Part shown: piece after piece, positions 7,154 through 24,825 of the stretch
Layout: each line of letters begins with the position of its first letter
How positions within the stretch are numbered: the first letter of the stretch is position 1
Source of the DNA: Candidatus Saccharimonadota bacterium
GTDB taxonomy: Bacteria; Bacteroidota; Bacteroidia; Flavobacteriales; Blattabacteriaceae
Direction of reading: 5' to 3'
DNA length: 32,000 bases
Assembly (NCBI RefSeq): GCF_000709555.1
Contig: NZ_CP006873.1
Span: forward strand, 90,001-122,000
Translations under genes and position numbers: made by a program
Notes under the pieces: model-generated
The model's database searches: none
What the model saw: the letters and a program-made list of their open reading frames with translations, nothing else
Told to the model about the DNA's origin: nothing

Positions 7154-7957
7154 TTGTGTTATAATAGGTTCTGCAGGTTATTCCGCTGCTATCTATACAG
7201 CACGAGCTGGTCTTAACCCTTTAGTCAGGAAAAAATCCTGGAGGACAGCTAACCTGAATTAATGGAAAAGATGAAAAAACAAGCTGATGGGGCCATTGTA
7301 AAAAGGCAGACGATTGTAAAAGTTTCCCTAGCAAAGGAAAAAAATTGTATCAATCAACTATATACTGACAATAATGAAAAAGTACAGGCCAAAGCTATCA
7401 TTATAGCCACAGGAGCTTTATCTAAAGATCTAGGTTTAGAAAGTGAAGAACGATTAAAAGGATACGGAGTTTCTTCGTGTGCTATTTGTGACGGTTTCTT
7501 GTATAAAGATAAAGTAGTAGCTGTCGTTGGAGGAGCCCTTGAAGAAACAATTTATCTTTCTAAGATATGTAAAATAGTATATTTATTGGTGCGAAGTGGT
7601 GCCTCAAAGGCTATGCAATGTCGTTTATGGAAAATATCGAATCTCAAAATTTATTTTTCTCATGAAATTAAGGAAATTTTAGGTGAGAGGTTTGTTGAAG
7701 GTGTGCGAATCATTAACAATCAAAAGGAATCTATTCTTTCCATAGATGGTATTTTTATAGCTATTGGTCAGATTCCTAATACAGCTATCTTTAGGGGGAA
7801 TTTGGATAAAATGGGTTAGACTAAAAAAGGAAGTACACACACCAATCTCCCTAGTGTTTTTGCTGCTGGAGATGTCCAAGATGCGGTTTCCCGTCAACTT
7901 CATCTGGGACGGGGTGCAGCACTTGATTTAGAACGTTATCTTATGGAAAATCATTAA
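7131..7957 (+). pseudogene. trxB: Thioredoxin-disulfide reductase pseudogene (multiple frameshifts, stops and deletions)
   Basis: ATG 7131 gives MLKESVHNCVIIGSAGYSAAIYTARAGLNPLV, in which the FAD GxGxxG motif is shortened to GSAGY, and the frame is then lost. GGQL appears in another frame. The central 185-aa ORF 7262-7819 keeps GVSSCAICDG and IATGA, but the NADPH motif is cut to VVGGALEE. After the stop at 7819 the C-terminus continues as [20 protein letters not shown]...[10 protein letters not shown] and ends with TAA 7955-7957. Confidence 0.85.
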
Positions 7958-7963
7958 TTAGTC

Positions 7964-8878
7964 ATGAATCGTTCTGTATTTATATTTTCTACAGTGGCTT
8001 TTCTTTTCTTTTCTTTTACCGATAATAGAAAATAACAGTGTTATAGATGATTATACTACTACAGTAGTAGACTATTTTAAGTTAAAAATGCAGCATGAAG
8101 AAACTTTTGTTTTTACTAAAAGTGAAGCTGTGACATTATATAATACTGGTAAAAAAAACAGTCTTTTCGATCATCAAATCTAAAAAACTAGAAGAATTTT
8201 TTTATTTTATAGTGGTAGAAGGTTTCCTGGAAATGGAAAAAATATTGATCTGATAGAGTATAAAAATATAGAAGGAAATATTATTATGGTGGTGATTAAT
8301 CAAACCTATATTTCTGCAGAAAAACTTGGTACGCTTGAAGAAAAAAAAATTATTAGTGAGGATGAACAACGTATTTCTTTTATTGATCCTTCTTCTTCCA
8401 TTTATCACGAAGATTTTTCAAAAACTTTATTTAATCTTAGAAAAAATAAGGGTTTGCAATATGCTCACAAAAACTTATGTTGGATTTTTCTTATTTCGGA
8501 ACTATGATGGTTTACAAAGGATTAGCTGACGGAATGGTCTCTGGAGCAGACTCTTCTCAAACTGGAGTAAACACAGTTTCTTCTATTTTTTTCATGCTTT
8601 TACATGATCGTGTCCCTGTAAAAACCCGAGCTCAGGATCTATTGATTGAAGGCCGACGCCTATTGTTGGAAAACAAAAGACCCAATTCTTCTGGAGCCGG
8701 AAAGGCTAATGTGCTTATTTTTCCTGATCTTAATACAGGAAATAATACTTATAAAGCAGTGCAAAGAGAAACTAAATCTTTAGCTACAAGGGAGCCTATA
8801 AATGAGGCGAAGACATTTATAATACTATTATTGTTACCTCTATACAAGCAACATATTTATGAAAATTCTGATTATTAA
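7964..8878 (+). pseudogene. pta: Phosphate acetyltransferase pseudogene (about 0.9 kb left of a gene that is about 2.1 kb in Bacteroidetes)
   Basis: ATG 7964 gives MNRSVFIFST... followed by a stop. Later fragments are ..RRFPGNGKNIDL..ISFIDPSSSIYHEDFSKTLFNLRKNKG, then a shift to DFSYFGTMMVYKGLADGMVSGA and AGKANVLIFPDLNTGNNTYKAVQRE (ORF 8477-8878). Large internal blocks are missing. The track ORFs 8286-8507, 8326-8529 and 8477-8878 are fragments of it. Confidence 0.8.
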
Positions 8879-9688
8879 TTCCTCTATATCAACTAATGGA
8901 GATGCCTGAAAATAAAGTCTTATCCAAAGGGCTCATAGAACGAATAGGTATAGAAGGAGGACATCTTCATCATAAATACTTTAAAAATGGTTCTTGGCTA
9001 GAATTAAAGAAAAATTTTAAAATAGACGATCACATTTCAGGTTTTGAACAAATAAATATTTTACTCTCTGATAGCCAAATAGGAGTTATTAAAATTCCTG
9101 ATGAGATCTTCGCTATTGGTCATAGAGTGGTACATGGTGGTAATGACCAAAACTATAGAAATTTCTAAAAAAGTAATTCGTTCTGTTTTTCCTCCCTTAC
9201 CGCCAATCTTCTGGGTTTCCCTCGAAAGAGTTTGCCTAAAAAATCCACGGGCAAAAATTATTACTCTTCATTTAGGAAATGGAGCGGTTATTAAGGAAGG
9301 CATTTCTACAGAAACCAGTATGGGTACCAATAGTGGACTTATTATGGGTACTCGTAGTGGAGATTTAGATACAACAATAATTTTTTACCTTTTAAGTAAG
9401 TCGTATAGCCCTGAATATCTATCCGATATATTGAATAAAAAAAGTGGAATGTTAGCCCTATCTGTAAACAGCGATCTGCGAGATAAAAAGGAGGATCCTA
9501 AAGCTAAATTAGCAGGAGAAAATGAGGCCTTTGTCCGAAGTATTATTTGTGATGAAATGGATTTTTTAGGTCTCATCCTAGATGAAAAGAAAAATACTAT
9601 TAAAGCCTCTGGTATTAGAGAAATACAATCCAATAAAAGTAGGGTGACCGAAGAAGAAATTGGTTTTCTTCTTTATAATATGTGGTAA
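8859..9688 (+). pseudogene. ackA: Acetate kinase pseudogene
   Basis: ATG 8859 gives MKILIINSSISTNGDA* (cf. MKILVINSGSSSIKYQL). ORF 8896-9168 carries ...GLIERIGIEGG...AIGHRVVHGG. ORF 9101-9688 carries KIITLHLGNGA, SMGT..GLIMGTRSGDLD and LNKKSGMLALS..SDLRD. The AFHQT...RRYGFHGTSH block is deleted and the C-terminus is truncated. About 0.83 kb remains of about 1.2 kb. Confidence 0.85.
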
Positions 9689-9689
9689 C

Positions 9690-12600
9690 ATGTATTTGAT
9701 TTTTGATACTGAAACCAATGGTTTACCGGAAAATTATGATACCGAGAAGTCGCCGCGTATGGTTCAACTCGCTTGGCAATTGTATGATGAGACCTTTGAA
9801 AGGATTGAGGTAAAAAACTTTATTGTCAAATCTGAAGGATTTGATATTCCTTTTAATTCGGTTAAAATTCATGGTATTACTGCTGAAAGATCTCTAAGAG
9901 AAGGATATCCTTTACAGGATGTTCTTATTTGTTTTAAAAAAGCTCTGGAGAAAAGTCAATTTCTAATTGGTCATAATATTGCTTTTGATATCAACGTTGT
10001 CAGTTGCGAATTCTTTAGAAAGAATTATCCGAATTTGTTTTTGCAAAAAACTGTTTTAGATACTAAAGATGAATCTATAAATTATTGTGCTTTTAAGGGA
10101 AGAGGAAGAGGTAAAAAATTTAAATGGCCCACTCTGACTGAACTATATTATAAACTTTTTGGTACCAATTTTCCGCAAGCGCATAATGCTGCAGCTGATG
10201 TTGAGGCTACAGTGCATTGCTTTGTTGAATTATTACGTTTAGGTGTCATCTCAGTTGATAAATTAGGGATCGATCAATTTAGAGTAAAAAAATTCATACA
10301 AAAAGTTAAATCTCTGAAGATAAGTCCTATCGGTCAAAACGTCTGTACAGAATTCCGTCAACGGAAAGTTCATCCTGTAGAAAAACCTGCACAGATAAAT
10401 AATTTGCGAGCCAAATTTGCGCAGATCCACAATCATACGACTTTTTCGATTTTATCAGCTACTACAGACGTATCATCTCTGGTCAAACGTGCATTTCAAT
10501 GGGGAATGCCTGCGGTAGGAATTACTGATTACGGTAATCTTATGGGATCTTTTTCCTTTTTGAAAGAAATAGAGAAAGCCAATGCTCAAATTGATCAAAA
10601 ATCGAAGACCCTTAAGGGAATTATAGGTTGTGAAATTTTTATGTCAGAAAATGATATTAAAAAAAAAATTACTAAAGATCATCCTGATATACGTTACAAA
10701 CAAGTTTTTTTAGCAAAGAATAAAAATGGTTATCAGAACCTATCTAAACTTTGTTCTGAAGGTTACATAAATGGACAATATGCACCCCGAGTAGGTAAAG
10801 AACTGATTCTGCAATATAAGGAAGGTCTAATAACTTTTACAGGATATCTTGATTCTGAAATTCCATCCACAATCCTTAATCAGGGAGAAATCCAGGGAGA
10901 AGAAATTTTTAAATGGTGGCATAACACTTTTAAAGATGATTTTTATGTAGAACTTTTCCGTCACGGATTAGAGGAAGAAGATTATGTTAACGAAGTATTA
11001 CTTAGATTTTCAGAAAAATATAATGTAAAATATATACCCCAAAATAATAGCTTTTATTTAGATAGGGAAGATGCTAATGCTCATGATATTCTGCTTTGTG
11101 TCCGAGATAGAGAAAAAAAGTCTACCCCAATAGGCTCAGGGAGAGGATATCGTTTTGGATTTAGGAACCAGGAGTTCTATTTTAAAAGTGCTTCTCAGAT
11201 GATTGAGAATTTTTCAGATTTCCCTAAATCCTTTGATTATTTAGAGGAGTTAATAAATAAAATCAGTCATTATTCTCTAGAAAGAGAAGTTATATTACCT
11301 CATTTTGAAATTACTAAAGTTGCATATGAGGGGCAACGTGGAGAAAATGCCTATCTGAGTTATTTAGCTTATCAAGGGGCAGAAAAACGTTATGGAAAAC
11401 TCAGTAAAAGATTGCGAGAACGCTTGGAATTTGAATTGAATACCATAGAGAGAACAAGATACCCTGGTTATTTTCTTATTGTTCAAGATATTGTGGCACA
11501 GGCTAAAAAAATGGGAATATCTGTTGGTCCAGGGAGAGGATCGGGAGCTGGGTCTTTGGTAGCTTACTGTATAGGTCTTACACAGATAGATCCTATCCGA
11601 TACAATCTCCTTTTTGAGCGTTTTTTAAATCCTGATAGAATATCTATGCCAGATATAGATATAGATTTTGATGACCGTGGTCGTGACAGAATAATAGCAT
11701 GGATAGTAAAAAAATATGGGCGAAAACAAGTTGCTAAAATTATTACCTATAGTAGGATGGGAGCTAAATCTGCTATACGAGATTCCGCCCGTGTTCTTGA
11801 TCTTCCATTAGCAGAGGCAGATCGTTTAGCTAAAATGATGCCTAATCTTTCGTTGAAAGAACTTTTTTCGTCCACACAGATCCAAGAAAAAATTCATGTA
11901 TTTGACCTCGAAAACGCATTAAAAATTAAACAAATTTCCCAAGAACAGAATCTTGAAGGAAAAGTTTTACGACAAGCAAGTGTTATTGAAGGATCTCTGA
12001 GAAATATCGGAGTCCATGCTTGCGGAATTATCATCACCCCATCCGACATTACTAATTATATCCCAGTAGCTATTTCCAAGGATTCAGATTTGCTTATTAC
12101 ACAATTTGATAATAATTGGGTCGAAAATGCTGGACTCCTAAAAATAGATATTTTAGGTCTCAAAACACTAACTATTATTAAAGATAGCATCAAATTAATC
12201 GAAACCCGTCATGGATTAATCCTCAATCCTAATCAATTCCCTTTAGATGATCCCAAAACTTCTAAACTTTTCCAACGAGGAGATACCGTAGCAGTATTCC
12301 AGTACGAGTCATATGGGATGAAAAGTTATATACGTAAACTCAACCCTGACAATTTCGATGACCTCATTGCAATTAATGCACTTTATCGACCAGGTCCATT
12401 ACAATATATACCAAATTTTATTGCCCGGAAACATGGGAAGGAATCTATAACATATAGTTTCCCTGAAATGGAAGAATTCCTTAGCAGTACTTATGGGATT
12501 ACTATTTATCAAGAACAAGTAATGTTGTTGGCTCAAAAGCTTGCAGGATTTGGTAAGGGAGAGGCTGATGTCTTACGTAAGGCTATGGGAAAAAAGCAAA

Positions 12601-13943
12601 AACCCGTACTTGATCAAATGAAAAGTAAGTTTATAGAAGGAGCTGTCCAGAAAGGATATACAAAAAAAATCTTAGAAAAAATTTGGACTGATTGGGAATC
12701 CTTTGCTTCCTATGCTTTTAATAAATCACATTCTACTTGTTATGCGAATCTTGCTTTTCAAACCGCTTATCTAAAAGCTCATTACCCGTCTGAATATATG
12801 GCAGCAGTATTGAGTAATAATATGCACAACCTCAAGGAAATTATTTTCCTGATGGAAGAATGTCGTCGTCTAGGAGTATTAGTACTTTGTCCCGATATTA
12901 ATGAAAGCTATTATACTTTTTCGGTCAATGAAAAAGGAGCTATACGTTTTGGCATGGGAGCTATAAAAGGTATAAGGGAAGCTTCGATAGAAGCTATTCT
13001 ACAGGAACGTGAAAAAAAAGGGATTTATCGTTCCATTTTTGATTTAGTAAAGAGAGTTGATTTCCGGATAGTGAATAAAAAGACTTTAGAGTCTTTAGTA
13101 CTTTCAGGAGCTTTTGATAGCTTTAGCAATGTTCATCGTGCACAATATTTTGACAAAAAAAAAAATTGTTTCACTGCTCTTGAAAAAATTATCCGTTTTG
13201 GAGAAAAATATCAGAATAGCAAACAAAAAAACCAGTGTTCTCTTTTTCAAGAGGAACCCGTATTACCATATTGTACTCCCTGGCCAAATCTTATTAAACT
13301 CCTGAAGGAAAAAGAAGTCATTGGGATCTACATTAGTTCTCATCCATTATATGATTATCGTCAGGAAATTCTAGCTATAGAAGGTATTCCTCTTCAAGAA
13401 TTCAATAGAAATGAATATAAATGGAGAGGTAAAGAAGTAAATCTCTATGGAATCATTCTTCGGTTCGAAAAAAAAATATCTGTAAAAAACAATAGTCGAT
13501 ATGGAGTATTTACTCTAGAAGATTATCAAGGAACGCGGGAGTTCAGAATATTTGGCGCATATTATACAAAGTATGCTTATTTACTTGTGCCAAATACTTT
13601 GATCCATCTTAAGATAATACTTAGTAACTTTAAAATACTTAGTAACTTTCAAAAGTTCCGTGTCAGCTTCTTGAACATTCAACTGCTTGACAATGTATTG
13701 AATTCGACAGATAAAGATCTTTATTTGAAGATCGATTTAGAAAGGTTAGATAATGAAATGATTAATAATATTGAACAGACGATTTCAAAGTATAAGGGTT
13801 CTAGAAAATTAAAGGTCATCCTGTTATATCATCAAGGTAAAAGATATATGGGTATGTTATCTAGGAGTTATGGAGTTAGTATAGAACGTGGATTAGTATC
13901 AGATTTAGAACAAATTCCCAACATTTCCTTAAATCTTTCTTAA
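9690..13943 (+). CDS. dnaE: DNA polymerase III alpha subunit with fused N-terminal DnaQ-like DEDDh 3'-5' exonuclease domain
   Basis: The likely start is ATG 9690 (MYLIFDTETNGLP); the track start 9660 lies inside the ackA fossil. The Exo motifs are DTETNG, GHNIAFDINVV and HNAAADVEAT. These are followed by the PHP motif (IHNHTTFSILSATTD), the polymerase core (GPGRGSGAGSLVAYC, PDIDIDF, GVHACGIIIT, ALYRPGP) and a C-terminal OB region. Confidence 0.95.
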   Translation: MYLIFDTETNGLPENYDTEKSPRMVQLAWQLYDETFERIEVKNFIVKSEGFDIPFNSVKIHGITAERSLREGYPLQDVLICFKKALEKSQFLIGHNIAFDINVVSCEFFRKNYPNLFLQKTVLDTKDESINYCAFKGRGRGKKFKWPTLTELYYKLFGTNFPQAHNAAADVEATVHCFVELLRLGVISVDKLGIDQFRVKKFIQKVKSLKISPIGQNVCTEFRQRKVHPVEKPAQINNLRAKFAQIHNHTTFSILSATTDVSSLVKRAFQWGMPAVGITDYGNLMGSFSFLKEIEKANAQIDQKSKTLKGIIGCEIFMSENDIKKKITKDHPDIRYKQVFLAKNKNGYQNLSKLCSEGYINGQYAPRVGKELILQYKEGLITFTGYLDSEIPSTILNQGEIQGEEIFKWWHNTFKDDFYVELFRHGLEEEDYVNEVLLRFSEKYNVKYIPQNNSFYLDREDANAHDILLCVRDREKKSTPIGSGRGYRFGFRNQEFYFKSASQMIENFSDFPKSFDYLEELINKISHYSLEREVILPHFEITKVAYEGQRGENAYLSYLAYQGAEKRYGKLSKRLRERLEFELNTIERTRYPGYFLIVQDIVAQAKKMGISVGPGRGSGAGSLVAYCIGLTQIDPIRYNLLFERFLNPDRISMPDIDIDFDDRGRDRIIAWIVKKYGRKQVAKIITYSRMGAKSAIRDSARVLDLPLAEADRLAKMMPNLSLKELFSSTQIQEKIHVFDLENALKIKQISQEQNLEGKVLRQASVIEGSLRNIGVHACGIIITPSDITNYIPVAISKDSDLLITQFDNNWVENAGLLKIDILGLKTLTIIKDSIKLIETRHGLILNPNQFPLDDPKTSKLFQRGDTVAVFQYESYGMKSYIRKLNPDNFDDLIAINALYRPGPLQYIPNFIARKHGKESITYSFPEMEEFLSSTYGITIYQEQVMLLAQKLAGFGKGEADVLRKAMGKKQKPVLDQMKSKFIEGAVQKGYTKKILEKIWTDWESFASYAFNKSHSTCYANLAFQTAYLKAHYPSEYMAAVLSNNMHNLKEIIFLMEECRRLGVLVLCPDINESYYTFSVNEKGAIRFGMGAIKGIREASIEAILQEREKKGIYRSIFDLVKRVDFRIVNKKTLESLVLSGAFDSFSNVHRAQYFDKKKNCFTALEKIIRFGEKYQNSKQKNQCSLFQEEPVLPYCTPWPNLIKLLKEKEVIGIYISSHPLYDYRQEILAIEGIPLQEFNRNEYKWRGKEVNLYGIILRFEKKISVKNNSRYGVFTLEDYQGTREFRIFGAYYTKYAYLLVPNTLIHLKIILSNFKILSNFQKFRVSFLNIQLLDNVLNSTDKDLYLKIDLERLDNEMINNIEQTISKYKGSRKLKVILLYHQGKRYMGMLSRSYGVSIERGLVSDLEQIPNISLNLS
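13617..13652 (+). repeat. In-frame 18-bp tandem duplication inside the dnaE C-terminal region
   Basis: atacttagtaactttaaa (13617-13634) is immediately followed by atacttagtaactttcaa (13635-13652), with 17/18 identity. It encodes ILSNFK|ILSNFQ. Confidence 0.9.
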
Positions 13944-13958
13944 GAAGATCCTCTCTCG

Positions 13959-15734
13959 ATGAAAATAAAAGTCAGAACTACTAATGCTGATGACACGAAA
14001 TATGTTGTAGTTATTTGTCAACAAATCGAGGAATCTGCCAAGATACGTAGAACCGGCATTGCTAAAAGGGATCCAGAATATGTAAAAAAAAAAATTACTG
14101 AAGGTCATGCTGTAATAGCTTTTTGTGACGGAATACTTGCTGGATTTAGTTATATAGAAACTTTTCAGGACAGACAATTCGTTGCTAATTCTGGTCTTAT
14201 TGTATTTCCAGAATTTCGGAATAAAGGAGTGGCCAAGCTAATTAAATCAGAAATCTTTCAACTATCTAGAAACAAATTTACGAAGTCAAAGATATTCAGT
14301 ATTACGACTAACATTTCAGTGTTAAAAATGAATATGGACTTGGGTTTCAAACCTGTACCTATAACAGTACTTCCCAAATCGGAAGACTTTTGGAAAGGAT
14401 GTAGAAGTTGTACAAACTATGATATTCTCACTAGACATAACCGAAAAATGTGTTTATGTAGCGGGATTTTATATGATCCTAGTGAAAAAAAATCTAATAA
14501 AAAATTACTTTTTGGGTATAAAAAATTATTTTTTGGTGATAAAAAATTACTTTTTGGGGATAAAATTTTACTTGCTTACAGTGGTGGTCTAGATACCTCT
14601 TATTGTTTAAAATTCCTAACCCAACAGGGTTTTCATGTGTATACAGCTATCGTAAATACTGGAGGTAGTAGTGAAAAAGAATTAATTGATATCGAAAAAA
14701 AGGCTTATGCTATAGGAGCCAAATTTCATCGAAATATAGAAGCAAAAGATGATTTTTATCAGCATTGTATAAAATATCTGATATTCGGAAATATTCTACG
14801 TAATCATACTTATCCCTTATCAGTAAGTGCCGAAAGAATTTTTCAAGCTATTAAAATAGCAGAATATGCTAATGAAATCAATGCTAAAGCCATAGCTCAC
14901 GGTAGTACCGGTGCTGGTAATGACCAGATCCGTTTTGATTTAGCCTTTCAAATATTGTGTCCTAATAAAATTATTATAAGCCCAATCCGGGATCTGAAAC
15001 TTTCACGAAAGGAGGAAATGGATTATTTACGTGAGCATGGAGTGGACATATTATGGGAAAAAGCGCAATATTCCCTGAATAAGGGTCTTTGGGGAACTAG
15101 TGTTGGAGGTAAAGAAACGCTGACTTCGAACCAAAATTTCCCAGAAGGAACCTATCCCAACTCTTTACAAGAGTTTAAGCCTCAAAAAATCCAACTAACT
15201 TTCTCAAAAGGGGAATTGATCGCTATCAATGGAGAAGTTACCGATCCAGTGGAAAATATAGTTCGTTTAGAGAGGATTGCTTCTCGTTTTGCTATAGGTC
15301 GTGATATTCATGTAGGTGATACACTTATTGGAATTAAAGGACGTGTAGGATTCGAAGCATCTTCAGCTCTGATAATTCTCAAGGCTCATCACCTTCTTGA
15401 AAAACATGTTCTTAGTAAATGGCAGATTTATTGGAAAGAACAATTGGGGAATTGGTATGGGATGCTTTTGCACGAAGCGCAATACTTCGATCCGGTTATG
15501 CGTGATATTGAAGCTTTTTTTATGAATTCTCAAGAAAGAGTTAGCGGAATTGTAAGCGTACAGTTGCATCCTTATCGTTTTGAACTTATAGGCATTGAGT
15601 CACCTTTTGATCTTATGCAGACTCAAAAAACAAAATATGGGGAAGAAAATGAGTCCTGTAGTTCTGAAGAAGCTAAAGGATTTATTAAAATATTTGGAAC
15701 CCCGATGAAAATTTATCACAGTATTAATCCCTAA
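13959..15734 (+). CDS. argG: Single ORF fusing a GNAT-family acyltransferase domain (arginine-cluster ArgA-like) to argininosuccinate synthase
   Basis: 591-aa ORF. Residues 1 to about 180 form a GNAT fold (GLIVFPEFRNKGVAKLI) with a Cys-rich tail (GCRSCTNY...KMCLCSG). From LLAYSGGLDTS onward it is canonical ArgG (AHGSTGAGNDQIRF, ...GRVGFEAS). No stop and no ATG/GTG/TTG lie between the two domains. Confidence 0.85.
   Translation: MKIKVRTTNADDTKYVVVICQQIEESAKIRRTGIAKRDPEYVKKKITEGHAVIAFCDGILAGFSYIETFQDRQFVANSGLIVFPEFRNKGVAKLIKSEIFQLSRNKFTKSKIFSITTNISVLKMNMDLGFKPVPITVLPKSEDFWKGCRSCTNYDILTRHNRKMCLCSGILYDPSEKKSNKKLLFGYKKLFFGDKKLLFGDKILLAYSGGLDTSYCLKFLTQQGFHVYTAIVNTGGSSEKELIDIEKKAYAIGAKFHRNIEAKDDFYQHCIKYLIFGNILRNHTYPLSVSAERIFQAIKIAEYANEINAKAIAHGSTGAGNDQIRFDLAFQILCPNKIIISPIRDLKLSRKEEMDYLREHGVDILWEKAQYSLNKGLWGTSVGGKETLTSNQNFPEGTYPNSLQEFKPQKIQLTFSKGELIAINGEVTDPVENIVRLERIASRFAIGRDIHVGDTLIGIKGRVGFEASSALIILKAHHLLEKHVLSKWQIYWKEQLGNWYGMLLHEAQYFDPVMRDIEAFFMNSQERVSGIVSVQLHPYRFELIGIESPFDLMQTQKTKYGEENESCSSEEAKGFIKIFGTPMKIYHSINP
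14499..14582 (+). repeat. 21-bp tandem repeat array (3 clear copies plus 1 degenerate copy) forming the GNAT-ArgG linker
   Basis: The copies are aaaaaattactttttgggtat (14499-14519), aaaaaattattttttggtgat (14520-14540) and aaaaaattactttttggggat (14541-14561). A fourth, aaaattttacttgcttacagt (14562-14582), is the start of the ArgG core. The translation is KKLLFGY|KKLFFGD|KKLLFGD|KILLAYS, in frame with ORF 13959. Confidence 0.9.
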
Positions 15735-16702: not shown

Positions 16703-17381
16703 AAATTCATTTGATGTGTATTCTACAATTCCTACTAGAATTAGTAAAAGGTTCCTTTTCGATAAGGAAGGAAACAAATATCTAGATTTTTATGGAGGAA
16801 TCTCTATTGGACATCCGTGAAATCTTTAATCGATTCCCCAACGCAATTTAAAAATTGCATCTTTTCATAACAGAAAAAACAAGATAATTTCATTCAAAAA
16901 AGCTTTTCATGGTCTGACTATAGGAGCGTTATCCATTACAGATAATCCGAAAATAGTTACTTCTTTTAATGACAAATTTGATAGAATAATTCTGGATCAG
17001 GAAGGGAGTGTACTGAAGGTAATCAGAGAGTAGCTGGCATTATAGATCCTGGGGTAGATTTTTTTCGAGGAATATTGTCGTAAGTACAATGTTCCTCTTA
17101 TTCGAGATGAAATTCAAAGTGGTATGGATTTCCTTTAGGAGGTGTGCTCCTTATTTCAAAGCTTTTCATGGGTTTTAAAAGTTATTAAAAATGAATGTAT
17201 GATTGAAAATGTCCTCAAATAAAGAGGATTAGTGGCTTGATGTTGTTATTTTCCTGTCTACAACTTAAGAGAGAGAAAAAGTGGGTACAACCTAATATTT
17301 TACGTGTTTTGCCTCCTCTCAGTATATCTAATTCTCAGGCTATGTGTTTTGTACGAAAGTTGAAGAGTGCTTTAGCTTATC
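16699..17381 (+). pseudogene. argD: Acetyl/succinyl-ornithine aminotransferase pseudogene
   Basis: No ORF of 60 aa or more. Fragments in shifting frames are FDVYSTIPTRISKRFLFDKEGNKYLDFYGGISIGHP*, ..KKAFHGLTIGALSITDNPK...FNDKF, LIRDEIQSG (cf. LIxDEVQxG) and NILRVLPPLSISNSQAM..LKSAL (cf. LRxxPPLxI). About 0.68 kb remains of about 1.15 kb. The PLP-lysine region is not recognisable. Confidence 0.8.
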
Positions 17382-17396
17382 TTGAATATCTTGAAA

Positions 17397-18482
17397 ATGA
17401 ATGATCCTATCGCTCGTTTAATCCTTCAAAAGGATGATAAAGAATATATTGGACATCTTTTTGGAGCACCTGTTTCTTCTTCTGGAGAAGTTGTTTTTAA
17501 TACTTCCATGACAGGTTATACAGAAAGCCTTACTGATCCATCTTATAAAGGACAGTTATTGGTCTATACCTATCCTATTATTGGTAACTACGGAATCCCC
17601 AATATAGGTAAAAATATATCAGATTTTTCTGAATCAGAAAACATACATATTAACGGTTTAATCATTTCTGATTATTCACATCATCCTTACCATTGGAACA
17701 TGAGATATAGTCTTTCGTATTGGTTGAAAAAGAATGGGGTTCCTGGAATCTATGGAATAGATACTCGTGCATTGACCAAAAAAATTCGTGAAGAAGGGAC
17801 GATGTTAGGAAAAATTATCATCAATCATGATATCCCATTTTATGATCCTAATCAGGAAAATCTAGCATCTAAGGTGTGTATTAATGAAAAAACTATATAC
17901 GGACATGGAAAATACAAGGTGTTGCTGGTTGATTTAGGAGTAAAGAACAATATCTTGCGCTGTTTGCTTAACCGAAATTGCCAGATAATACGTGTGCCAT
18001 GGTCTTCTGATTTTTCCAAAGAAGACGACTATGATGGTATTTTGCTTTCTAATGGACCAGGTAATCCTAAGACTTATCATAAGGTTATAAAACACGTGGA
18101 GTATGCCCTTAAAGATAATCGTCCTATCTTTGGAATTTGTCTTGGAAATCAATTAATTGGTCTCGCTGCAGGAGTGAATACCTTTAAACTAAAATATGGG
18201 CATCGCGGCTATAACCAACCAGTTTTGCTCGAAGGGACCTCTAAGGCATACATAACTTCACAAAATCATGGATACGTCCTTGACGTACAAATTTTGCCTC
18301 CAAACTGGAAAATTTTATTTCAAAATATCAACGACGGATCTTGTGAGGGATTAATACATGAAAATAAACCTTTCTTTTCAGTTCAATTTCATCCAGAAGC
18401 CTCTGGTGGACCTATAGATACCGAATTTTTATTTGATTGGTTTATAGAATGCATGCATTCATCCAATAAATTATATAGATGA
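17397..18482 (+). CDS. carA: Carbamoyl-phosphate synthase small (glutamine amidotransferase) subunit
   Basis: The likely start is ATG 17397 ([14 protein letters not shown]); the track start is TTG 17382. Motifs are [23 protein letters not shown] (catalytic Cys) and FHPEASGGP. There is an ATGA overlap with carB. Confidence 0.95.
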
Positions 18483-21400
18483 AAAAAATTCTGGTTATTG
18501 GTTCTGGGGCTTTGAAAATTGGAGAGGCAGGAGAATTTGATTATTCAGGAACACAAGCCTTAAAAGCAATTAAAGAAGAGGGAATAGAGACTATTTTAGT
18601 GAATCCTAATATCGCTACAGTGCAAACCTCTGAAGGTATAGCCGATAAAATTTATTTTCTTCCTATTTACCCAAAATTTATTAAAAAAGTCATCGAAAAA
18701 GAAAAACCTAGTGGACTTTTGTTATCCTTCGGAGGACAAACAGCATTAAATTGTGGCGTGAAACTGTTTGAAAAAGGTGTATTGAAAAAACATGTTCTAA
18801 AAGTTTTAGGTACTCCTATAGAGTCTATTATTGCTAGTGAAGATAGAGATATTTTTCGAGATAAACTCAATACTATGAATATCAAAACGGCTCGTGGTAT
18901 AGTGGTACATTCTCTGGAAGAAGCCTTTTCGGCCTCTGAAGAAATAGGCTTCCCTATAATTATAAGAACTTCTTATGCCTTAGGAGGACTGAGTAGTGGA
19001 TTTGCTCACGATAAAAAGGAATTGGCAACATTGATAGACATAGCTTTATCACATTCTTCACAAATCCTTATAGAAGAATCCCTGAAAGGTTGGAAGGAAA
19101 TAGAATATGAAGTCATGTGCGACCGATACGGAAATTGTATTACGGTATGCAATCTGGAAAATTTCGACCCCATTGGTATACATACAGGAGACAGCATAGT
19201 AGTAGCTCCTTCACAAACTCTTCCTAATTCTGAATATCAGAAACTTCGCACATTTTCTCTGTCTATTGCCCGTGCTTTTGGAATAATAGGAGAATGTAAT
19301 GTGCAGTTCGCTTTATCCCCAAATTCTGAGGATTATCGTCTTATTGAAATAAATGCAAGACTTTCTCGTTCAAGTGCTTTAGCTTCTAAAGCTACGGGAT
19401 ATCCAATAGCCTTTATAGCAGCAAAACTAGCCTTAGGCTATGGTTTACATGAATTAAAGAATTATGTTACCCAAACTACTTCTGCTTTTTTTGAACCGTC
19501 TCTTGATTATGTAGTGTGCAAATTTCCTCGTTGGGATTTAAAAAAATTCTCCCGATCATCTACCCAAATTGACAGTAGTATGAAAAGTGTGGGTGAAGTT
19601 ATGTCTATAGGAGGATCCTTTGAAGAAGCGTTCCAGAAAGGATTACGGATGCTTGATATAGGATTAGAAGGATTCATCAATCCTAAAAAAAAAAGATGAC
19701 ACTCTTGAAAAACGTCTTATAATTCCTACCGATCAGCGAGTAAAAGCGCTGGAAGCTGCTTTTGATGAAGGCTACACAGCAGAAAAACTTTATGATCTTA
19801 CACGTATTGATCTTTGGTTTCTTTACAAGCTTCGCAATATTCATCACACAAAAAAAATACTATCACGGTACAAAAAGTATGAAGATTTACCTAAAAATAT
19901 TTTTTATTTAGCCAAAAAGCAAGGATATTCAGATCGACAAATAGGAGCTATTCTTAGCCCTGACGAACATATGTCTATATCTTCTTCTATGGTTCGTAAT
20001 ATACGAAAAACTCTCAAAATTTTTCCTCACGTACGTCGTATAGACACTTTATCAGCTGAATATCCAGCATATACCAACTACTTGTATATGAGTTATCATG
20101 CTTATCGTCATGATATTGATTACGAAGGGGATGGACGGTCAGTAGTAGTTTTAGGATCTGGTGTGTATCGTATAGGTAGTAGTGTAGAATTTGATTGGTG
20201 TTGTGTGAACACATTAAAGGTTCTTCATTCTGAAGGTTATCGATCGATAATGATCAACTGTAATCCTGAAACTGTCAGTACAGATTTTGACGAATGTGAA
20301 AGATTATATTTTGAAGAACTCACTCTAGAACGTGTGCTAGATATTCTAGAACTAGAAACCCCGAAAGGGACGATTGTATCTATGGGAGGACAAATTTCCA
20401 ACAATCTTGCATTCCCACTCCATCAAAATAAGCAAAGAATTTTAGGAAGCTTAGCCACTTCTGTAGATGAAGTAGAAGACCGTTATAAGTTTTCCAAAGC
20501 TTTGGATATCCTAGGCATAGAACAACCTATGTGGAAAGAATTTTCTAAGATGAACGATATTCAGACCTTTATTAGAGAGGTCGGATATCCGATATTAATC
20601 CGACCATCGTATGTCCTATCAGGTTCAGGAATGAACGTAATTTTTAATGTAGAAGAACTTAGATACTTTTTTGATAAATTGGAGACGTCTGAACATTCAG
20701 TAGTGATAAGTAAATTTATAGAAAATGCTAAAGAAATAGAACTAGATGCTGTGGCTCATAAAGGTGATCTTATTTATCATGCCGTCTCCGAGCATATAGA
20801 ATTTGCTGGATTACATTCAGGAGATGCTACTTTAGTATATCCTCCGCAAAATATTTACTTATCTACGTTCCAAGAAATCGAACGTATTTCTAAACAAATT
20901 GCACAATATTTTCATATTTCAGGACCTTTTAATATACAGTTTATTTCTAAAAATAACCGAATTCAAGTAATAGAGTGCAATTTACGAGCTTCCAGAAGTT
21001 TTCCTTTTATTTCTAAAGTCTCTGGATTTAATATGATCCGATTAGCTACTGAAGTAATGTTAGGAAAACTCACGAATCCTTGTGGAATTTTTTTTTCTTT
21101 TAATTATATAGGTGTAAAAGTTTCGTACTTCTCCTTTTCACGTCTTCCAGGGACAGATCCTGTCCTAGGTGTAGATATGGTTTCTACAGGTGAAGTAGGT
21201 TGTTTGGGAAACAATTTTTATGAGTGCCTCATAAAAGCTATGTTGTCTGCTGGCTTTAGCGTCCCTGTCAAGCATCTTTTAATTTCAGGAGAAATTTCTT
21301 CTTTAAAAGAAGATTTTATTAATACTATTAAACTATTGGTGTATAAGGGATATAAACTGTTTTCGACAGAGGAGATATATCCATTTCTTATGGATTATGG

Positions 21401-21665
21401 TTTAACTTCAAAGCTATTGTCCTGGCCAGGTGTGCATCATTTCCCCAATGTCTTTGACTATCTTCGAAAGAAAAAAATTTATTTCATTATCAATATTCCT
21501 CATAACAAATATTCCGAAATAGATAATAACTATACTCTAAGACGCTCAGCAGTAGATTTCAATATTCCGCTTTTAACTAATACTAGTTTAGCTAAAGCCT
21601 TTATAAGAGCTTTCTGTAAAGAAGAACTAACTATAGCAGAATGGAAAAGTTATCTAACAGTATGA
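18479..21665 (+). CDS. carB: Carbamoyl-phosphate synthase large subunit, one gene split into two ORFs by a +1 frameshift inside an A10 tract
   Basis: ORF 18479-19699 holds ATP-grasp 1 ([22 protein letters not shown]...). Read one nucleotide forward from the A-run, the frame continues without stops. It reads [46 protein letters not shown]...[12 protein letters not shown]...[21 protein letters not shown], which is the oligomerisation domain. That frame joins ORF 19971-21665 (ATP-grasp 2 plus the MGS-like tail). After the correction the gene is about 1061 codons, the normal CarB size. Confidence 0.9.
19685..19694 (+). repeat. A10 homopolymer at the carB frameshift site
   Basis: The sequence is cct-aaaaaaaaaa-gatgac. 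With 10 A the frame hits TGA at 19697-19699. With 9 A the frame reads [10 protein letters not shown]... and stays open to 21665. Confidence 0.95.
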
Positions 21666-22625
21666 ACCGATTTTTTAGTGTTCAAGATATTCCTAATGTC
21701 CCTGTTTTGGTAAAGGAGGCATTATCTCTTAAAAAAGCTCCTTATATAGAACTTGTCAAAAAAAAATAAGATTATAGGATTAGTATTTTTTAATCCAAGC
21801 TTGAGAACACGGTTGAGCAGTCAAAAAGCTGCTTTTCACCTAGGTTGCGATACTTGGACACTAAATATAGATCATGATTCTTGGAAAATAGAGATGAATG
21901 ATGGTGACGTTATGGACCGTCACTCCCAAGAACATATAAAAGAAGCCGTTGGAGTGATGAGTTTATATTGCGATATATTAGGTGTTCGAACCTTTCCTGG
22001 ACTAAAAAATAGAGATTCTGATTATAAAGAAATTCTTTTTAAGAATATAGAAAATTATTCTCACGTTCCGATAGTTAATTTAGAAAGTGCTACACGTCAT
22101 CCCTTGCAATCTTTAGCTGATGCTATGACCATTGAAGAGTGTCGTGTTCCTGGAAACCCGATAAAAGTAGTACTTAGTTGGGCCCCTCATCCTAAAGCTT
22201 TACCACATTCTGTGCCTAATTCTTTTATAGAATGGATTTCCAAATTACCTAATACTGATCTAATAATTACTCATCCTATTGGATATGAGCTTGATAAAGA
22301 AATTACTAAAAATACAAATATTCTTTATAATCAAGAAGAAGCCTTAAAGTATGCAGATTTTATTTATGCCAAAAATTGGAGCAGTTATACCTATTACGGG
22401 AAGATTCTATGTGATGACACTAGATGGATGATTACTTGTGAGAAGATGGACCTTACTAATAAGGCAAAATTTATGCATTGCCTCCCCATCAGACGTAATG
22501 TAGTAGCTGAAGACGCTGTTCTAGATTCCTATATTTCTTTGATTTTTCAAGAGGCTGAAAATAGGATCTTCGCTTCTAAGGCTATTTTCAAAAGGATATT
22601 GAACGCATCATCATGTTGCATATAG
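21662..22625 (+). CDS. argF': N-acyl (acetyl/succinyl)-L-ornithine carbamoyltransferase, interrupted by a +1 frameshift inside an A9 tract
   Basis: ATG 21662 (ATGA overlap with the carB stop) gives [35 protein letters not shown], the family N-terminus. ORF 21753-22625 continues as KIIGLVFFNPSLRTRLS..., HPLQSLAD and HCLP in the frame one nucleotide forward. Removing one A joins them with no other lesion. Confidence 0.85.
21758..21766 (+). repeat. A9 homopolymer at the argF' frameshift site
   Basis: The sequence is gtc-aaaaaaaaa-taag. With 9 A the first frame ends at TAA 21767-21769. With 8 A it reads ELVKKNKIIGLVFFNPSLRTR. Confidence 0.95.
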
Positions 22626-23386: not shown

Positions 23387-23402
23387 ATTTATTGAAACCT
23401 AA

Positions 23403-23718
23403 ATGTATGATACAAGAAATAAAAGATAACAGGCATCCCTTCTGATTGCTTCTAAAAAACTATCTCTAGTATATTTCTGGGCTCCTTGGTGTAACTCATG
23501 TAAATCTTTAGCTCCTTTCATAGAAGAGATCTCAGAAAAGTATGATGGAAAAGTTTTAATAATAAAAATAAATGTAAATGATAATACAAAAACTGTTTAT
23601 GAACATGGAATAAAAAGTATTCCTACATTAATATGTTTTAAAAATGGAAAAGAAATATGCAGGAGTGAATTCTCAAAATCCTTTAACTAAGGAATTAGAT
23701 AAATTAATTTGTAAGTAG
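23403..23718 (+). pseudogene. trx: Thioredoxin pseudogene (in-frame TAA at codon 9 plus a C-terminal frameshift)
   Basis: The translation is MYDTRNKR*QASLLIASKKLSLVYFWAPWCNSCKSLAPFIEEISEKYDGKVLIIKINVNDNTKTVYEHGIKSIPTLICFKNGKEICRSEF. The expected C-terminus, NSQNPLTKELDKLICK*, is found only in the frame one nucleotide forward. No ATG/GTG/TTG lies between the TAA and the WCxxC motif. The motif is WCNSC rather than the canonical WCGPC. Confidence 0.8.
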
Positions 23719-23792
23719 GGTCTGGTAGTTCAGCTGGTTAGAATACGTGCCTGTCACGCATGTGGTCACGGGTTCAAGTCCCGTCCAGATCG
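23719..23792 (+). tRNA. tRNA-Asp (anticodon GUC)
   Basis: The sequence folds by hand as GGTCTGG-TA-GTTC-AGCTGGTTA-GAAT-A-CGTGC-CTGTCAC-GCATG-TGGTC-ACGGG-TTCAAGT-CCCGT-CCAGATC-G. It forms a cloverleaf with a 7-bp acceptor stem (one G-U pair), a GTC anticodon and a TTCAAGT T-loop. It closely resembles E. coli tRNA-Asp. CCA is not encoded. Confidence 0.95.
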
Positions 23793-23868
23793 CTAATCGT
23801 CATTGTGAAATAAAGACGACTGTTTTTATTTTTTATTAGACTGCAAGCTATTATAGAGAGTTCTCTGC

Positions 23869-24777
23869 TTAAACTTTCCTCCAGTCCGTAAAGGAAGGTC
23901 TTTTGAAACTGTTGTCGAAATGCGTGGTGGTTTCGTGTAAATGCAGCTTCTCTGTTACTTTCCCAGGCTCTCGCCCTTTAAAAGTATGGGAAATTCTGTA
24001 AAATTCGGAGGTCTGCTTCAAAAAGCTCAAAACAATCTTCACAATCAAATTATGGTAAGAAGAACTCGTGCTAACGTAGAAAGTTTCTTTATGATTACCA
24101 TTCTACTGATCATTGTGGAGACAACAATAAGCGGGGTATTCATTCTATCTCGGTGCAGTAATATTCATTGATAGATCGTTCACAACAAATAGATGCAGGG
24201 TCGTGAGGCAGAATATTAAAAATCCTAGAAGTAATCGTTTATGAATTACAAGTGCTTAATTCCTCAGTCCTTTAAACATAGGACAAATATTTTAAGATTT
24301 CGTTAAGATCGCCAACCTTAATTTACCTGTGAAATGTCTTTCGGAGTCCGGGAAGATATTTTCTTTTCTTTTCTTTTTGAAGAACTCATATCATATCTTT
24401 TCGATATTCAATTGAATACTCCTTTCCTTCGTATTCCCTATCGGACACCGCTTTGTAATGAGGATTCTCTGCAATTCCAGGTCGTACACAGGGTAAGACG
24501 TCCACGACTTTCTGGAAAAACTAAACAACTAGGAGAATTGCGCCTTGAAATGGTGACGGGAAATAATGGATACAGCTCCTTTGTTAAACCTTAAAAAGTC
24601 CGTAAAAGAGGTGCTATAAGAATTCATAAAAGAGAGGAAAAGTTTTAAATATGGTGCTCTTGTATTATTCGGGTAGGAAAATCTCATCGCTTTTCCAATA
24701 TTATGATAGATAGCCCATCAAAATTGAATAAGACACAATTATCTGAACTCGGATTTATATAGACCTAGTTTAAACAT
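23869..24777 (-). pseudogene. icd: Decayed isocitrate dehydrogenase-like gene (beta-decarboxylating dehydrogenase family; icd favoured over leuB)
   Basis: Minus-strand translation gives collinear islands in shifting frames matching remembered E. coli Icd blocks. They are VLFNFDGLSII (cf. PYIEGDGIG), TSFTDFLRFNKGAVSII (cf. [20 protein letters not shown]) and QGAILLVV*FFQKVVDVLPCVRPGIAENPHYK (cf. [24 protein letters not shown]...SPVK). They continue with SDREYEGKEYSIEY (24386-24520 block, cf. FRENSEDIYAGIEW), KENIFPDSE (cf. KKIRFPEH), ALVIHK (cf. TLVHKG) and ILPHDP...INEYY (cf. ILLRPAEYDV...NLNGDY). The two plus-strand track ORFs here are antisense to this fossil. Confidence 0.45.
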
Positions 24778-24825
24778 CAGATCCGGTCTCTTTTTCTTGA
24801 AGCTCTTGTAAAAGAATTATCAGTT

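Follow-up and report, generated by a model that had tools for sequence, protein, structure and literature searches.

Poly(A) frameshift in carB of Candidatus Walczuchella monophlebidarum: a tolerated lesion, possibly put right through transcriptional slippage

The question raised by this locus is whether a gene that loses its reading frame at a run of adenines is dead or is still expressed across the break. The gene is carB, located in a window of 32,000 nucleotides (nt), by which we mean the whole stretch of DNA that was analysed (contig NZ_CP006873.1, positions 90,001 to 122,000 of the forward strand). The stretch belongs to Candidatus Walczuchella monophlebidarum LLAX, the flavobacterial symbiont of the scale insect Llaveia axin axin, and a flavobacterial symbiont was also what an earlier sequence-only reading of the same DNA had correctly guessed. 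The RefSeq proteins WP_233485143.1 and WP_233485144.1 of this symbiont are exact matches of the two open reading frames (ORFs) into which carB is divided. Based on the comparison of related genomes, our best explanation, held at about even confidence, is that carB of LLAX carries a genuine and tolerated frameshift and may remain functional at reduced output, most likely via slippage of RNA polymerase.

The slippage-rescue hypothesis for carB has already been published, and it is therefore no new proposal of ours. Slippage was raised in general terms for the LLAX genome by Rosas-Perez in 2014 (Genome Biology and Evolution, GBE; PMC3971599). A paper of 2025 in Molecular Biology and Evolution (MBE; PMC12188211) names carB explicitly; its treatment consists of a tract screen only, with pseudogenes excluded from the selection analysis. 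The contrast between A10 and A11 alleles, the downstream ratio of non-synonymous to synonymous rates (dN/dS, omega), the calibration against argD and the frameshift in argF' are absent from the main text of that paper and are added here as an increment.

The carB lesion and its alleles in related symbionts

At positions 19680-19699 the window reads atcct-A10-gatga, and the frame of carB is lost within the A10 tract. The features involved are the following.

18479-19699, plus strand: 5' ORF of carB, 406 amino acids (aa), ending ...GFINPKKKR and stop; carboxyphosphate ATP-grasp half up to the linker
19685-19694, plus strand: poly(A) tract A10, the frameshift site; the in-frame lengths are A9 and A12
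19697-19699, plus strand: TGA that ends the zero frame early, two codons past the tract, read from the sequence
19695-21665, plus strand: 3' part of carB in the +1 frame, from GAT at 19695 to TGA at 21663-21665; oligomerisation domain, second ATP-grasp half and allosteric MGS domain
19971-21665, plus strand: annotated second ORF of 564 aa, beginning at the first ATG (WP_233485144.1), from the ORF listing and the RefSeq match

The lesion is a single indel within an A run of at least 9 nt, and the rest of carB is in frame. Read in the +1 frame from 19686, the sequence has 660 codons with the first stop at 21665, and the removal of one A gives a product of 1061 aa with a single terminal stop. This bears out the earlier claim that carB is broken solely at the A10 tract, without any further stop or shift. 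The two ORFs described at that time, 18479-19699 and 19971-21665 with an apparent gap between them, are both listed as such, and the gap, which had been said to encode the CarB oligomerisation domain when read one nucleotide forward, indeed matches CPSase_L_D3 at residues 412-491 of the repaired protein (E 5e-21). The ORF 19971-21665 is a gene-caller artefact of the frameshift and no separate gene. In Pfam, the repaired protein contains CPSase_L_D1 and D2 twice each as well as the MGS domain. It was aligned with 120 CarB homologues at 100% coverage, and its closest full-length relative comes from another Walczuchella genome (93% identity).

The break is located at residue 403, in the variable linker that joins the first ATP-grasp domain to the oligomerisation domain. 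The alignment with human CPS1 is gapped on both sides of the junction, which marks the linker as indel-tolerant, and three or four lysines at this place should therefore both be tolerated. In the window the first 92 codons of the CarB frame past the tract include no ATG, GTG or TTG.

We took the same locus from 14 other assemblies (L001-L014), giving 15 together with the window. Eight of these (L001-L008) read CCT-A11-GATGAC at the carB site; they comprise two closed symbiont genomes, from Drosicha pinicola and D. corpulenta (CP170567, CP170568), five assemblies built independently from SRA runs and one ENA assembly, L006, which is more divergent than the other A11 assemblies. In the six assemblies of Icerya and Crypticerya symbionts the site reads CCT-A9-TCTTTATATGAC and carB is intact, with 1100-1102 aa. 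The A9 of these intact relatives is followed by TCTTTATAT, and relative to their A9 TCTTTATAT GAC the window, with A10 GAT GAC, shows a net change of -5 nt. A10 was found only in LLAX and needs a correction of -1 or +2, whereas A11 needs +1 or -2. An in-frame A9 or A12 before GAT was seen in none of the nine alleles of the frameshifted clade. The phrase 'one extra A' in the sequence-only reading thus holds when measured against a hypothetical A9-GAT allele, but this allele is absent from every assembly compared.

A single repair gives an ORF of 1061-1066 aa in all nine frameshifted alleles, which span at least three diverged lineages differing by 2.6-4.8% at the DNA level. Exact-pattern scans for further alleles gave only the Icerya purchasi symbiont, already in the set, among genome contigs, and none among metagenome contigs. 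A phase-variable contingency locus was also considered and was rejected, as 9/9 alleles of the clade are out of frame and the near-identical Drosicha-type assemblies all have A11.

At the position of the tract, outgroup CarB proteins read ...KKSLEKE... and those of the Iceryini symbionts KKKSLYD. As the outgroups read KKSLEKE, the Iceryini sequence is ancestral and the loss of SLY a derived change shared by the Llaveia, Drosicha and L006 lineages, which is consistent with the published split between Drosicha plus Llaveia and Icerya plus Crypticerya (PMC12188211). However the clade is resolved, the Drosicha and L006 lineages have A11 in common. With an out-of-frame ancestor one tract-length change suffices under all three resolutions, and with an in-frame ancestor at least two are needed. 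By parsimony on a mutable character, the frameshift is likely to be ancestral to the clade.

The lesion could also be an assembly or sequencing artefact, the true LLAX tract being A9 or A12 and carB intact. The 2014 assembly of LLAX was a hybrid made with Velvet and Phrap from Illumina and 454 reads (PMC3971599), and the 454 reads, with their homopolymer miscalls, leave room for such an error. A second LLAX assembly was sought via the exact 406-aa and 564-aa products, and neither was on record from another LLAX assembly. Against this, the Illumina coverage was very deep (61.6 M read pairs), and the control homopolymers, namely argG A11, dnaE A9, a T9 at 21088 in the 3' part of carB and several A8 tracts, were equal in length in all 13-15 assemblies covering them, the 2014 reference included. 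This constancy indicates that homopolymer calls are reproducible and argues against random miscalling, and the A11 state was reproduced independently many times. A one-base error at the LLAX A10 is conceivable, but it would be equally likely to mask A11, the state of the nearest relatives and also out of frame, as A9. We therefore regard an artefact that hides an intact gene as very improbable.

Selection downstream of the tract

On the three terminal branches of the frameshifted clade, the 3' part of carB has accumulated 42.5 synonymous and 37.5 non-synonymous changes, corresponding to an omega of about 0.25; neutrality is rejected at p = 2e-9, or at p = 1e-3 under a null chosen to be conservative. 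Taken without the window branch, the Drosicha and L006 branches gave an omega of 0.29 (p = 2e-5), and the window branch by itself, with 16 synonymous and 10 non-synonymous changes, one of 0.17 (p = 1e-5). For five intact neighbouring arg genes omega was 0.31 on the same branches, with no difference from the 3' part of carB (Fisher p = 0.34). A comparison of downstream dN/dS with orthologues had been proposed in the sequence-only reading, and its outcome is purifying selection as in the intact neighbours. The 5' part of carB is under tighter constraint (omega 0.07; Fisher p = 0.02 versus the 3' part), and a smaller difference in the same direction was seen for the intact carB of the Iceryini symbionts in most but not all comparisons.

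The reading frame itself has also been preserved. No nonsense mutation was found in the 3' part of carB, although neutral evolution would be expected to produce about 10 (P = 4e-5). The window branch has two indels in all, of 6 and 9 nt, and both are in frame. At near-invariant positions (columns at least 98% conserved among 119 homologues) the window has kept 173/180 residues downstream of the tract and the intact L011 176/180, while upstream both have kept 168/175. The start-less codons between the tract and position 19971, which encode the oligomerisation domain, carry 9 synonymous and 6 non-synonymous changes (omega 0.18, p = 1e-3).

The latter result bears on the idea of a split enzyme, in which the two ORFs would be translated apart and then assembled. 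CarB consists of an internal duplication, and in some thermophiles the protein is split by nature. In the Drosicha symbiont alleles a GTG permits a second ORF of 646 aa that starts 18 nt past the first stop. This GTG is however also absent in L006, where the second ORF has 569 aa, and the break at residue 403 does not fall between the homologous halves, which meet at about residue 550. As the 92 start-less codons of the window are nevertheless under constraint, re-initiation at 19971 does not explain the conservation. We considered the split enzyme and rejected it, leaving it next to no probability.

The neighbouring argD was used as a control for the decay of a dead gene.

16703-17381, plus strand: argD remnant, a true pseudogene by comparison with the intact argD of L001

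In the window argD has suffered 15 deletions (4-90 nt, with a length divisible by 3 in only two cases) as well as an insertion of 1 nt, and has shrunk from about 1150 to about 680 nt. With 16 indels relative to the intact argD of the Drosicha symbiont, the earlier description of this gene as shredded was apt. The gene is intact in 14/14 relatives, and its loss is thus specific to the LLAX lineage. The argD rate, 16 indels in 1.15 kilobases, predicts about 27 indels in the 3' part of carB, where two were seen (P(<=2) = 5e-10). Despite the loss of argD, the genes argG, argC, carA, argF' and argB have stayed intact in LLAX. This raises the question of the source of the aminotransferase step in this symbiont.

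The same lineage-specific loss is a reason to consider that carB of LLAX may be a young pseudogene, dead for too short a time to have decayed and with a constraint signal that predates its inactivation. The A10 state is likewise private to LLAX, four near-invariant downstream positions show private changes, one of them a residue deletion, and Llaveia also has a Sodalis co-symbiont with genes for all essential amino-acid pathways (PMC12188211). However, the downstream omega of 0.17 was obtained on the window branch itself, both indels of that branch are in frame and the five arg operon genes named above are still kept. Moreover, the sister lineages are out of frame too, so that the state probably predates the window branch. 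A young pseudogene is in our view unlikely.

The sequence-only reading had left three options for the lesion, namely recent, tolerated or artefact. The comparative data select the second, in view of the shared out-of-frame tracts, the single repair, the downstream constraint and the decay of argD, and we therefore read the lesion as tolerated, as opposed to recent decay or a generic assembly artefact.

A second tract in argF' and the surrounding genes

The arginine genes of the window contain another frameshift of the same kind, directly downstream of carB in argF', the gene of an N-succinyl/acetyl-ornithine carbamoyltransferase.

21662-21769, plus strand: N-terminal 35 codons of argF', aligned to the N-termini of 116 full-length orthologues
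21758-21766, plus strand: second poly(A) tract, A9, in argF'; the in-frame lengths are A8 and A11
21768-22625, plus strand: argF' body in the +1 frame, starting KIIGLVFFNPSLRTR, from the alignment after removal of one A

The start ATG of argF' at 21662 overlaps the carB stop, and the leader ORF ends right past the A9. The gene is annotated as a 290-aa ORF from TTG 21753 (21753-22625), in which the carbamoyltransferase N-domain is matched only from profile position 38. With one A removed, argF' encodes 320 aa, of which residues 1-314 align to residues 1-315 of 1JS1, the Bacteroides fragilis N-succinylornithine carbamoyltransferase (E 5e-91). The predicted variants of the junction peptide are YIELVKKNKIIGL and YIELVKKKNKIIGL. 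All homologues from outside Walczuchella (116/116, 310-341 aa) span the N-terminus, and the Walczuchella proteins alone are truncated.

The frame offset of argF' is identical in 15/15 assemblies; in the Iceryini symbionts a GTC-to-GTA change extends the run to A10 and leaves the frame unchanged. With ...VKKNK... in the nearest outgroup, the ancestral tract would seem to have been A8. Across the 15 assemblies the body contains zero indels, with omega values of 0.23-0.49 across the genus. The frameshift in argF' predates that in carB, and its genus-wide occurrence adds weight to the view that expression across A tracts of the wrong length is routine in Walczuchella. In the 2014 paper argF was reported as not found (PMC3971599), and argF' is not named in the main text of PMC12188211. 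The carB stop was lost through an 8-nt deletion in the symbionts of Icerya and Crypticerya (about 9200-9303 in L009-L014, equivalent to 21650-21769 in the window), and the CarB of the Iceryini symbionts (1100-1102 aa) hence continues through the argF' start and leader, ending ...YIELVKKK and stop at the argF' poly(A).

Upstream of carB lies its partner gene carA, the stop of which overlaps the carB start; 360-aa carA orthologues are intact in all relatives.

17382-18482, plus strand: carA, glutamine amidotransferase small subunit, intact; Pfam CPSase_sm_chain and GATase

The gene order across the window is efp, sucD, peroxiredoxin, radical-SAM enzyme, pfkA, holA, fragments of trxB, pta and ackA, and dnaE, followed by argG, argC, the argD remnant, carA, carB, argF', argB, thrA, thrB, thrC and clpB, the latter on the minus strand. 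Gene remnants are clustered at 7262-9688 and include a 185-aa trxB-like fragment (pyridine-nucleotide disulphide oxidoreductase), a 133-aa phosphate acetyltransferase fragment and an acetate kinase in two overlapping fragments, 8896-9168 and 9101-9688. The argG ORF (13959-15734) encodes 591 aa, with the arginosuccinate synthase domains beginning at residue 202. Its N-terminal extension of about 200 aa, which contains an A11 tract, is conserved in all relatives (577-584 aa). Between argB and thrA lies a spacer with the remains of a decayed aminoacyl-tRNA synthetase gene; from lineage to lineage it differs by an extremely large number of indels. A 107-aa thioredoxin gene lies 3' of argB in the relatives covering that stretch, except L006; in the window 23387-24825 contains no thioredoxin ORF of at least 80 aa (the equivalent region in L001 is 10953-13000).

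Long in-frame poly(A) tracts also occur in intact essential genes of the window, namely in dnaE (A10 at 10659-10668, A11 at 13155-13165 and A9 at 13468-13476) and argG (A11 at 14084-14094), and of these the argG A11 and the dnaE A9 keep the same length in each of the 13 assemblies covering them. If RNA polymerase slips at carB, it should slip at the dnaE and argG tracts too, lowering the output of these genes. Over the whole window the plus strand has 21 runs of at least eight A and 4 of at least eight T (10 and 3 at a cut-off of at least nine; 4 and 0 at a cut-off of at least ten), with nearly equal contents of A (0.339) and T (0.322). The A runs are lysine codons on the sense strand, because almost all genes lie on the plus strand.

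A promoter and terminator scan of 17000-22500 gave 15 sigma-70-like sites, compared to 20.6 by chance. Bacteroidota are not known to use the sigma-70 promoter consensus. A sigma-70-like match of 11/12 at 19696-19723 was dismissed, as it lies inside conserved coding sequence.

Routes of frame restoration and their meaning

In the explanation that we favour, RNA polymerase would slip on the A10 template run, or on A11 in the sister strains, and generate a mixed pool of mRNA in which a minority of the transcripts carries A9 or A12. Translation of these transcripts would yield full-length CarB (...INPKKK(K)DDTLEK...). That full-length CarB is made, and that the correcting step is transcriptional, we infer; the tract with its single lesion, the persistence of out-of-frame lengths across lineages and the constraint on the downstream frame are shown by the comparison. 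Slippage of bacterial RNA polymerase is established on A or T runs of 9 or more nt (PMC1088944), and the rescue of poly(A) frameshifts by slippage in Buchnera and Blochmannia is summarised by Williams and Wernegreen (2010; PMC3017870). Among the routes to frame restoration polymerase slippage is the most likely one. The candidate status for slippage rescue that the sequence-only reading had given to carB is supported by the comparative evidence, with the polymerase, ribosome and DNA routes not separable from sequence.

Ribosomal recoding, in which the ribosome instead of the polymerase would shift or slide on the AAA-lysine run, is an unlikely alternative, although one of some weight. The zero frame of the A11 alleles, CCT AAA AAA AAA AAG, holds a dnaX-type A_AAA_AAG, and a -1 shift would enter the CarB frame exactly (GAT GAC...). 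Ribosomes of Escherichia coli slide robustly on A11 and little on A9-A10 (PMC4363877), and in the chloroplast atpB gene an oligo(A) frameshift is corrected in translation, better with two additional A than with one (PMC8254509), which fits A11 being the commoner state. For the window these arguments work in the opposite direction, as A10 has no -1 solution at a heptamer, needs a +1 shift on AAA_A and lies below the A11 threshold for sliding; the argF' A9 likewise requires a +1-type correction. Furthermore, no stimulatory structure was found downstream, with fold z-scores of +1.25 for the window, +0.11 for L001 and -0.13 for L009. Folds of 83-121 nt around or after the tract in the window, an A11 allele and an intact allele were no stabler than shuffled sequences (z -0.32 to +1.25).

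The correction could alternatively take place in the DNA, if the highly polyploid symbiont carried mixed tract lengths as a result of replication slippage, with minority copies of A9 or A12 supplying carB and the assemblies showing the majority. Homopolymers are the main hotspots of intrahost indels in the related flavobacterial symbiont Karelsulcia (PMC13345377), mismatch repair is missing in most Walczuchella, with mutS in three genomes only (PMC12188211), and at least one tract-length change (A10 versus A11) has occurred within the clade. Yet the majority is out of frame in 9/9 assemblies, five de Bruijn-graph assemblies have unbroken contigs across the site and other A9-A11 tracts are length-invariant in 13-15 assemblies. 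In addition, a beneficial in-frame allele, if available, would be expected to sweep. We consider such heterogeneity improbable.

Several points weigh against polymerase slippage at a tolerated carB lesion. In Buchnera, circle sequencing (CirSeq) showed that insertions dominate at homopolymers and that no frame was restored (PMC5574713). If insertions are favoured, the A11 alleles are better suited to correction than the A10 of the window, which calls for the loss of 1 nt or the gain of 2 nt. The A-tract frameshift of chloroplast atpB was corrected by the ribosome and not detectably by the polymerase (PMC8254509). For the order of the three frameshifted lineages the informative sites split 51/46/33, effectively a polytomy, and we claim no specific ancestral tract length; tract lengths are moreover mutable. 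The A10 call comes from one LLAX assembly (2014, Illumina and 454). The private changes of the window at near-invariant positions number four downstream (I662V, S736 deleted, D1001Y, K1008H) and one upstream, and the loss of argD possibly reflects some relaxed selection in LLAX. The LLAX allele is the least secure of the set, with a single assembly, the less favoured correction, private changes at conserved sites and the loss of argD.

The comparison with known systems places slippage at carB in a context that is partly familiar. Tamas et al. (2008) and Wernegreen et al. (2010) reportedly found that poly(A) frameshifts in Buchnera and Blochmannia are rescued by transcriptional slippage. These cases resemble carB in that a single indel lies in an A run of at least 9 and the gene, from an AT-rich obligate insect symbiont, is intact apart from it, in that the frameshift is shared between diverged lineages without downstream erosion and in that many long in-frame A tracts occur elsewhere in the genome. 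They differ in that Buchnera and Blochmannia are gammaproteobacteria, whereas the present case, read from DNA sequence, concerns a flavobacterium of the Bacteroidota. Walczuchella also has, unlike Buchnera and Blochmannia, two out-of-frame lengths (A10 and A11) in sister lineages that require opposite corrections.

In dnaX, Thermus thermophilus uses transcriptional slippage on A9 and E. coli a -1 ribosomal frameshift at A_AAA_AAG. As in carB, an A run there yields products in more than one frame, and the A11 alleles of carB hold the exact E. coli heptamer. The dnaX systems however make a programmed second product, whereas in carB the shift is needed for the only useful product, and no downstream stem-loop was found. 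The chloroplast atpB frameshift of Oenothera (I-iota) and tobacco (PMC8254509) is similar to carB in that an A11-type insertion affects the lysine run of an essential gene, and that the genome is reduced, AT-rich and polyploid. There, partial correction was shown experimentally to restore function and was ascribed to the ribosome, and a downstream stem-loop is present at atpB and not at carB.

Taken together with argF', carB allows a wider proposal, which we put forward tentatively and consider somewhat doubtful. The arginine operon of Walczuchella would contain two long-maintained poly(A) frameshifts, the genus-wide A9 of argF' and the A11 or A10 of carB in the Drosicha and Llaveia symbionts, that are corrected in opposite directions (+1 for A11; -1 for A10 and A9). 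Frequent bidirectional slippage could then be a standing part of gene expression in this symbiont, the first such case outside the Gammaproteobacteria. Slippage might even serve as a built-in attenuator that keeps the dosage of CarB and ArgF' low.

As a discovery this is modest, since the phenomenon has been known since 2008 and carB was flagged in 2025. We know of no measurement of such a correction in the phylum Bacteroidota. Walczuchella offers a natural series, with an intact A9 in the Icerya and Crypticerya symbionts, A10 in that of Llaveia, A11 in those of Drosicha and the genus-wide A9 of argF', and this series lends itself to asking if homopolymer frameshifts are corrected by the polymerase or by the ribosome, and which way the correction goes. 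Should carB and argF' still be functional, then metabolic reconstructions in which they count as pseudogenes would underestimate the contribution of Walczuchella to its host and overestimate its dependence on co-symbionts for arginine.

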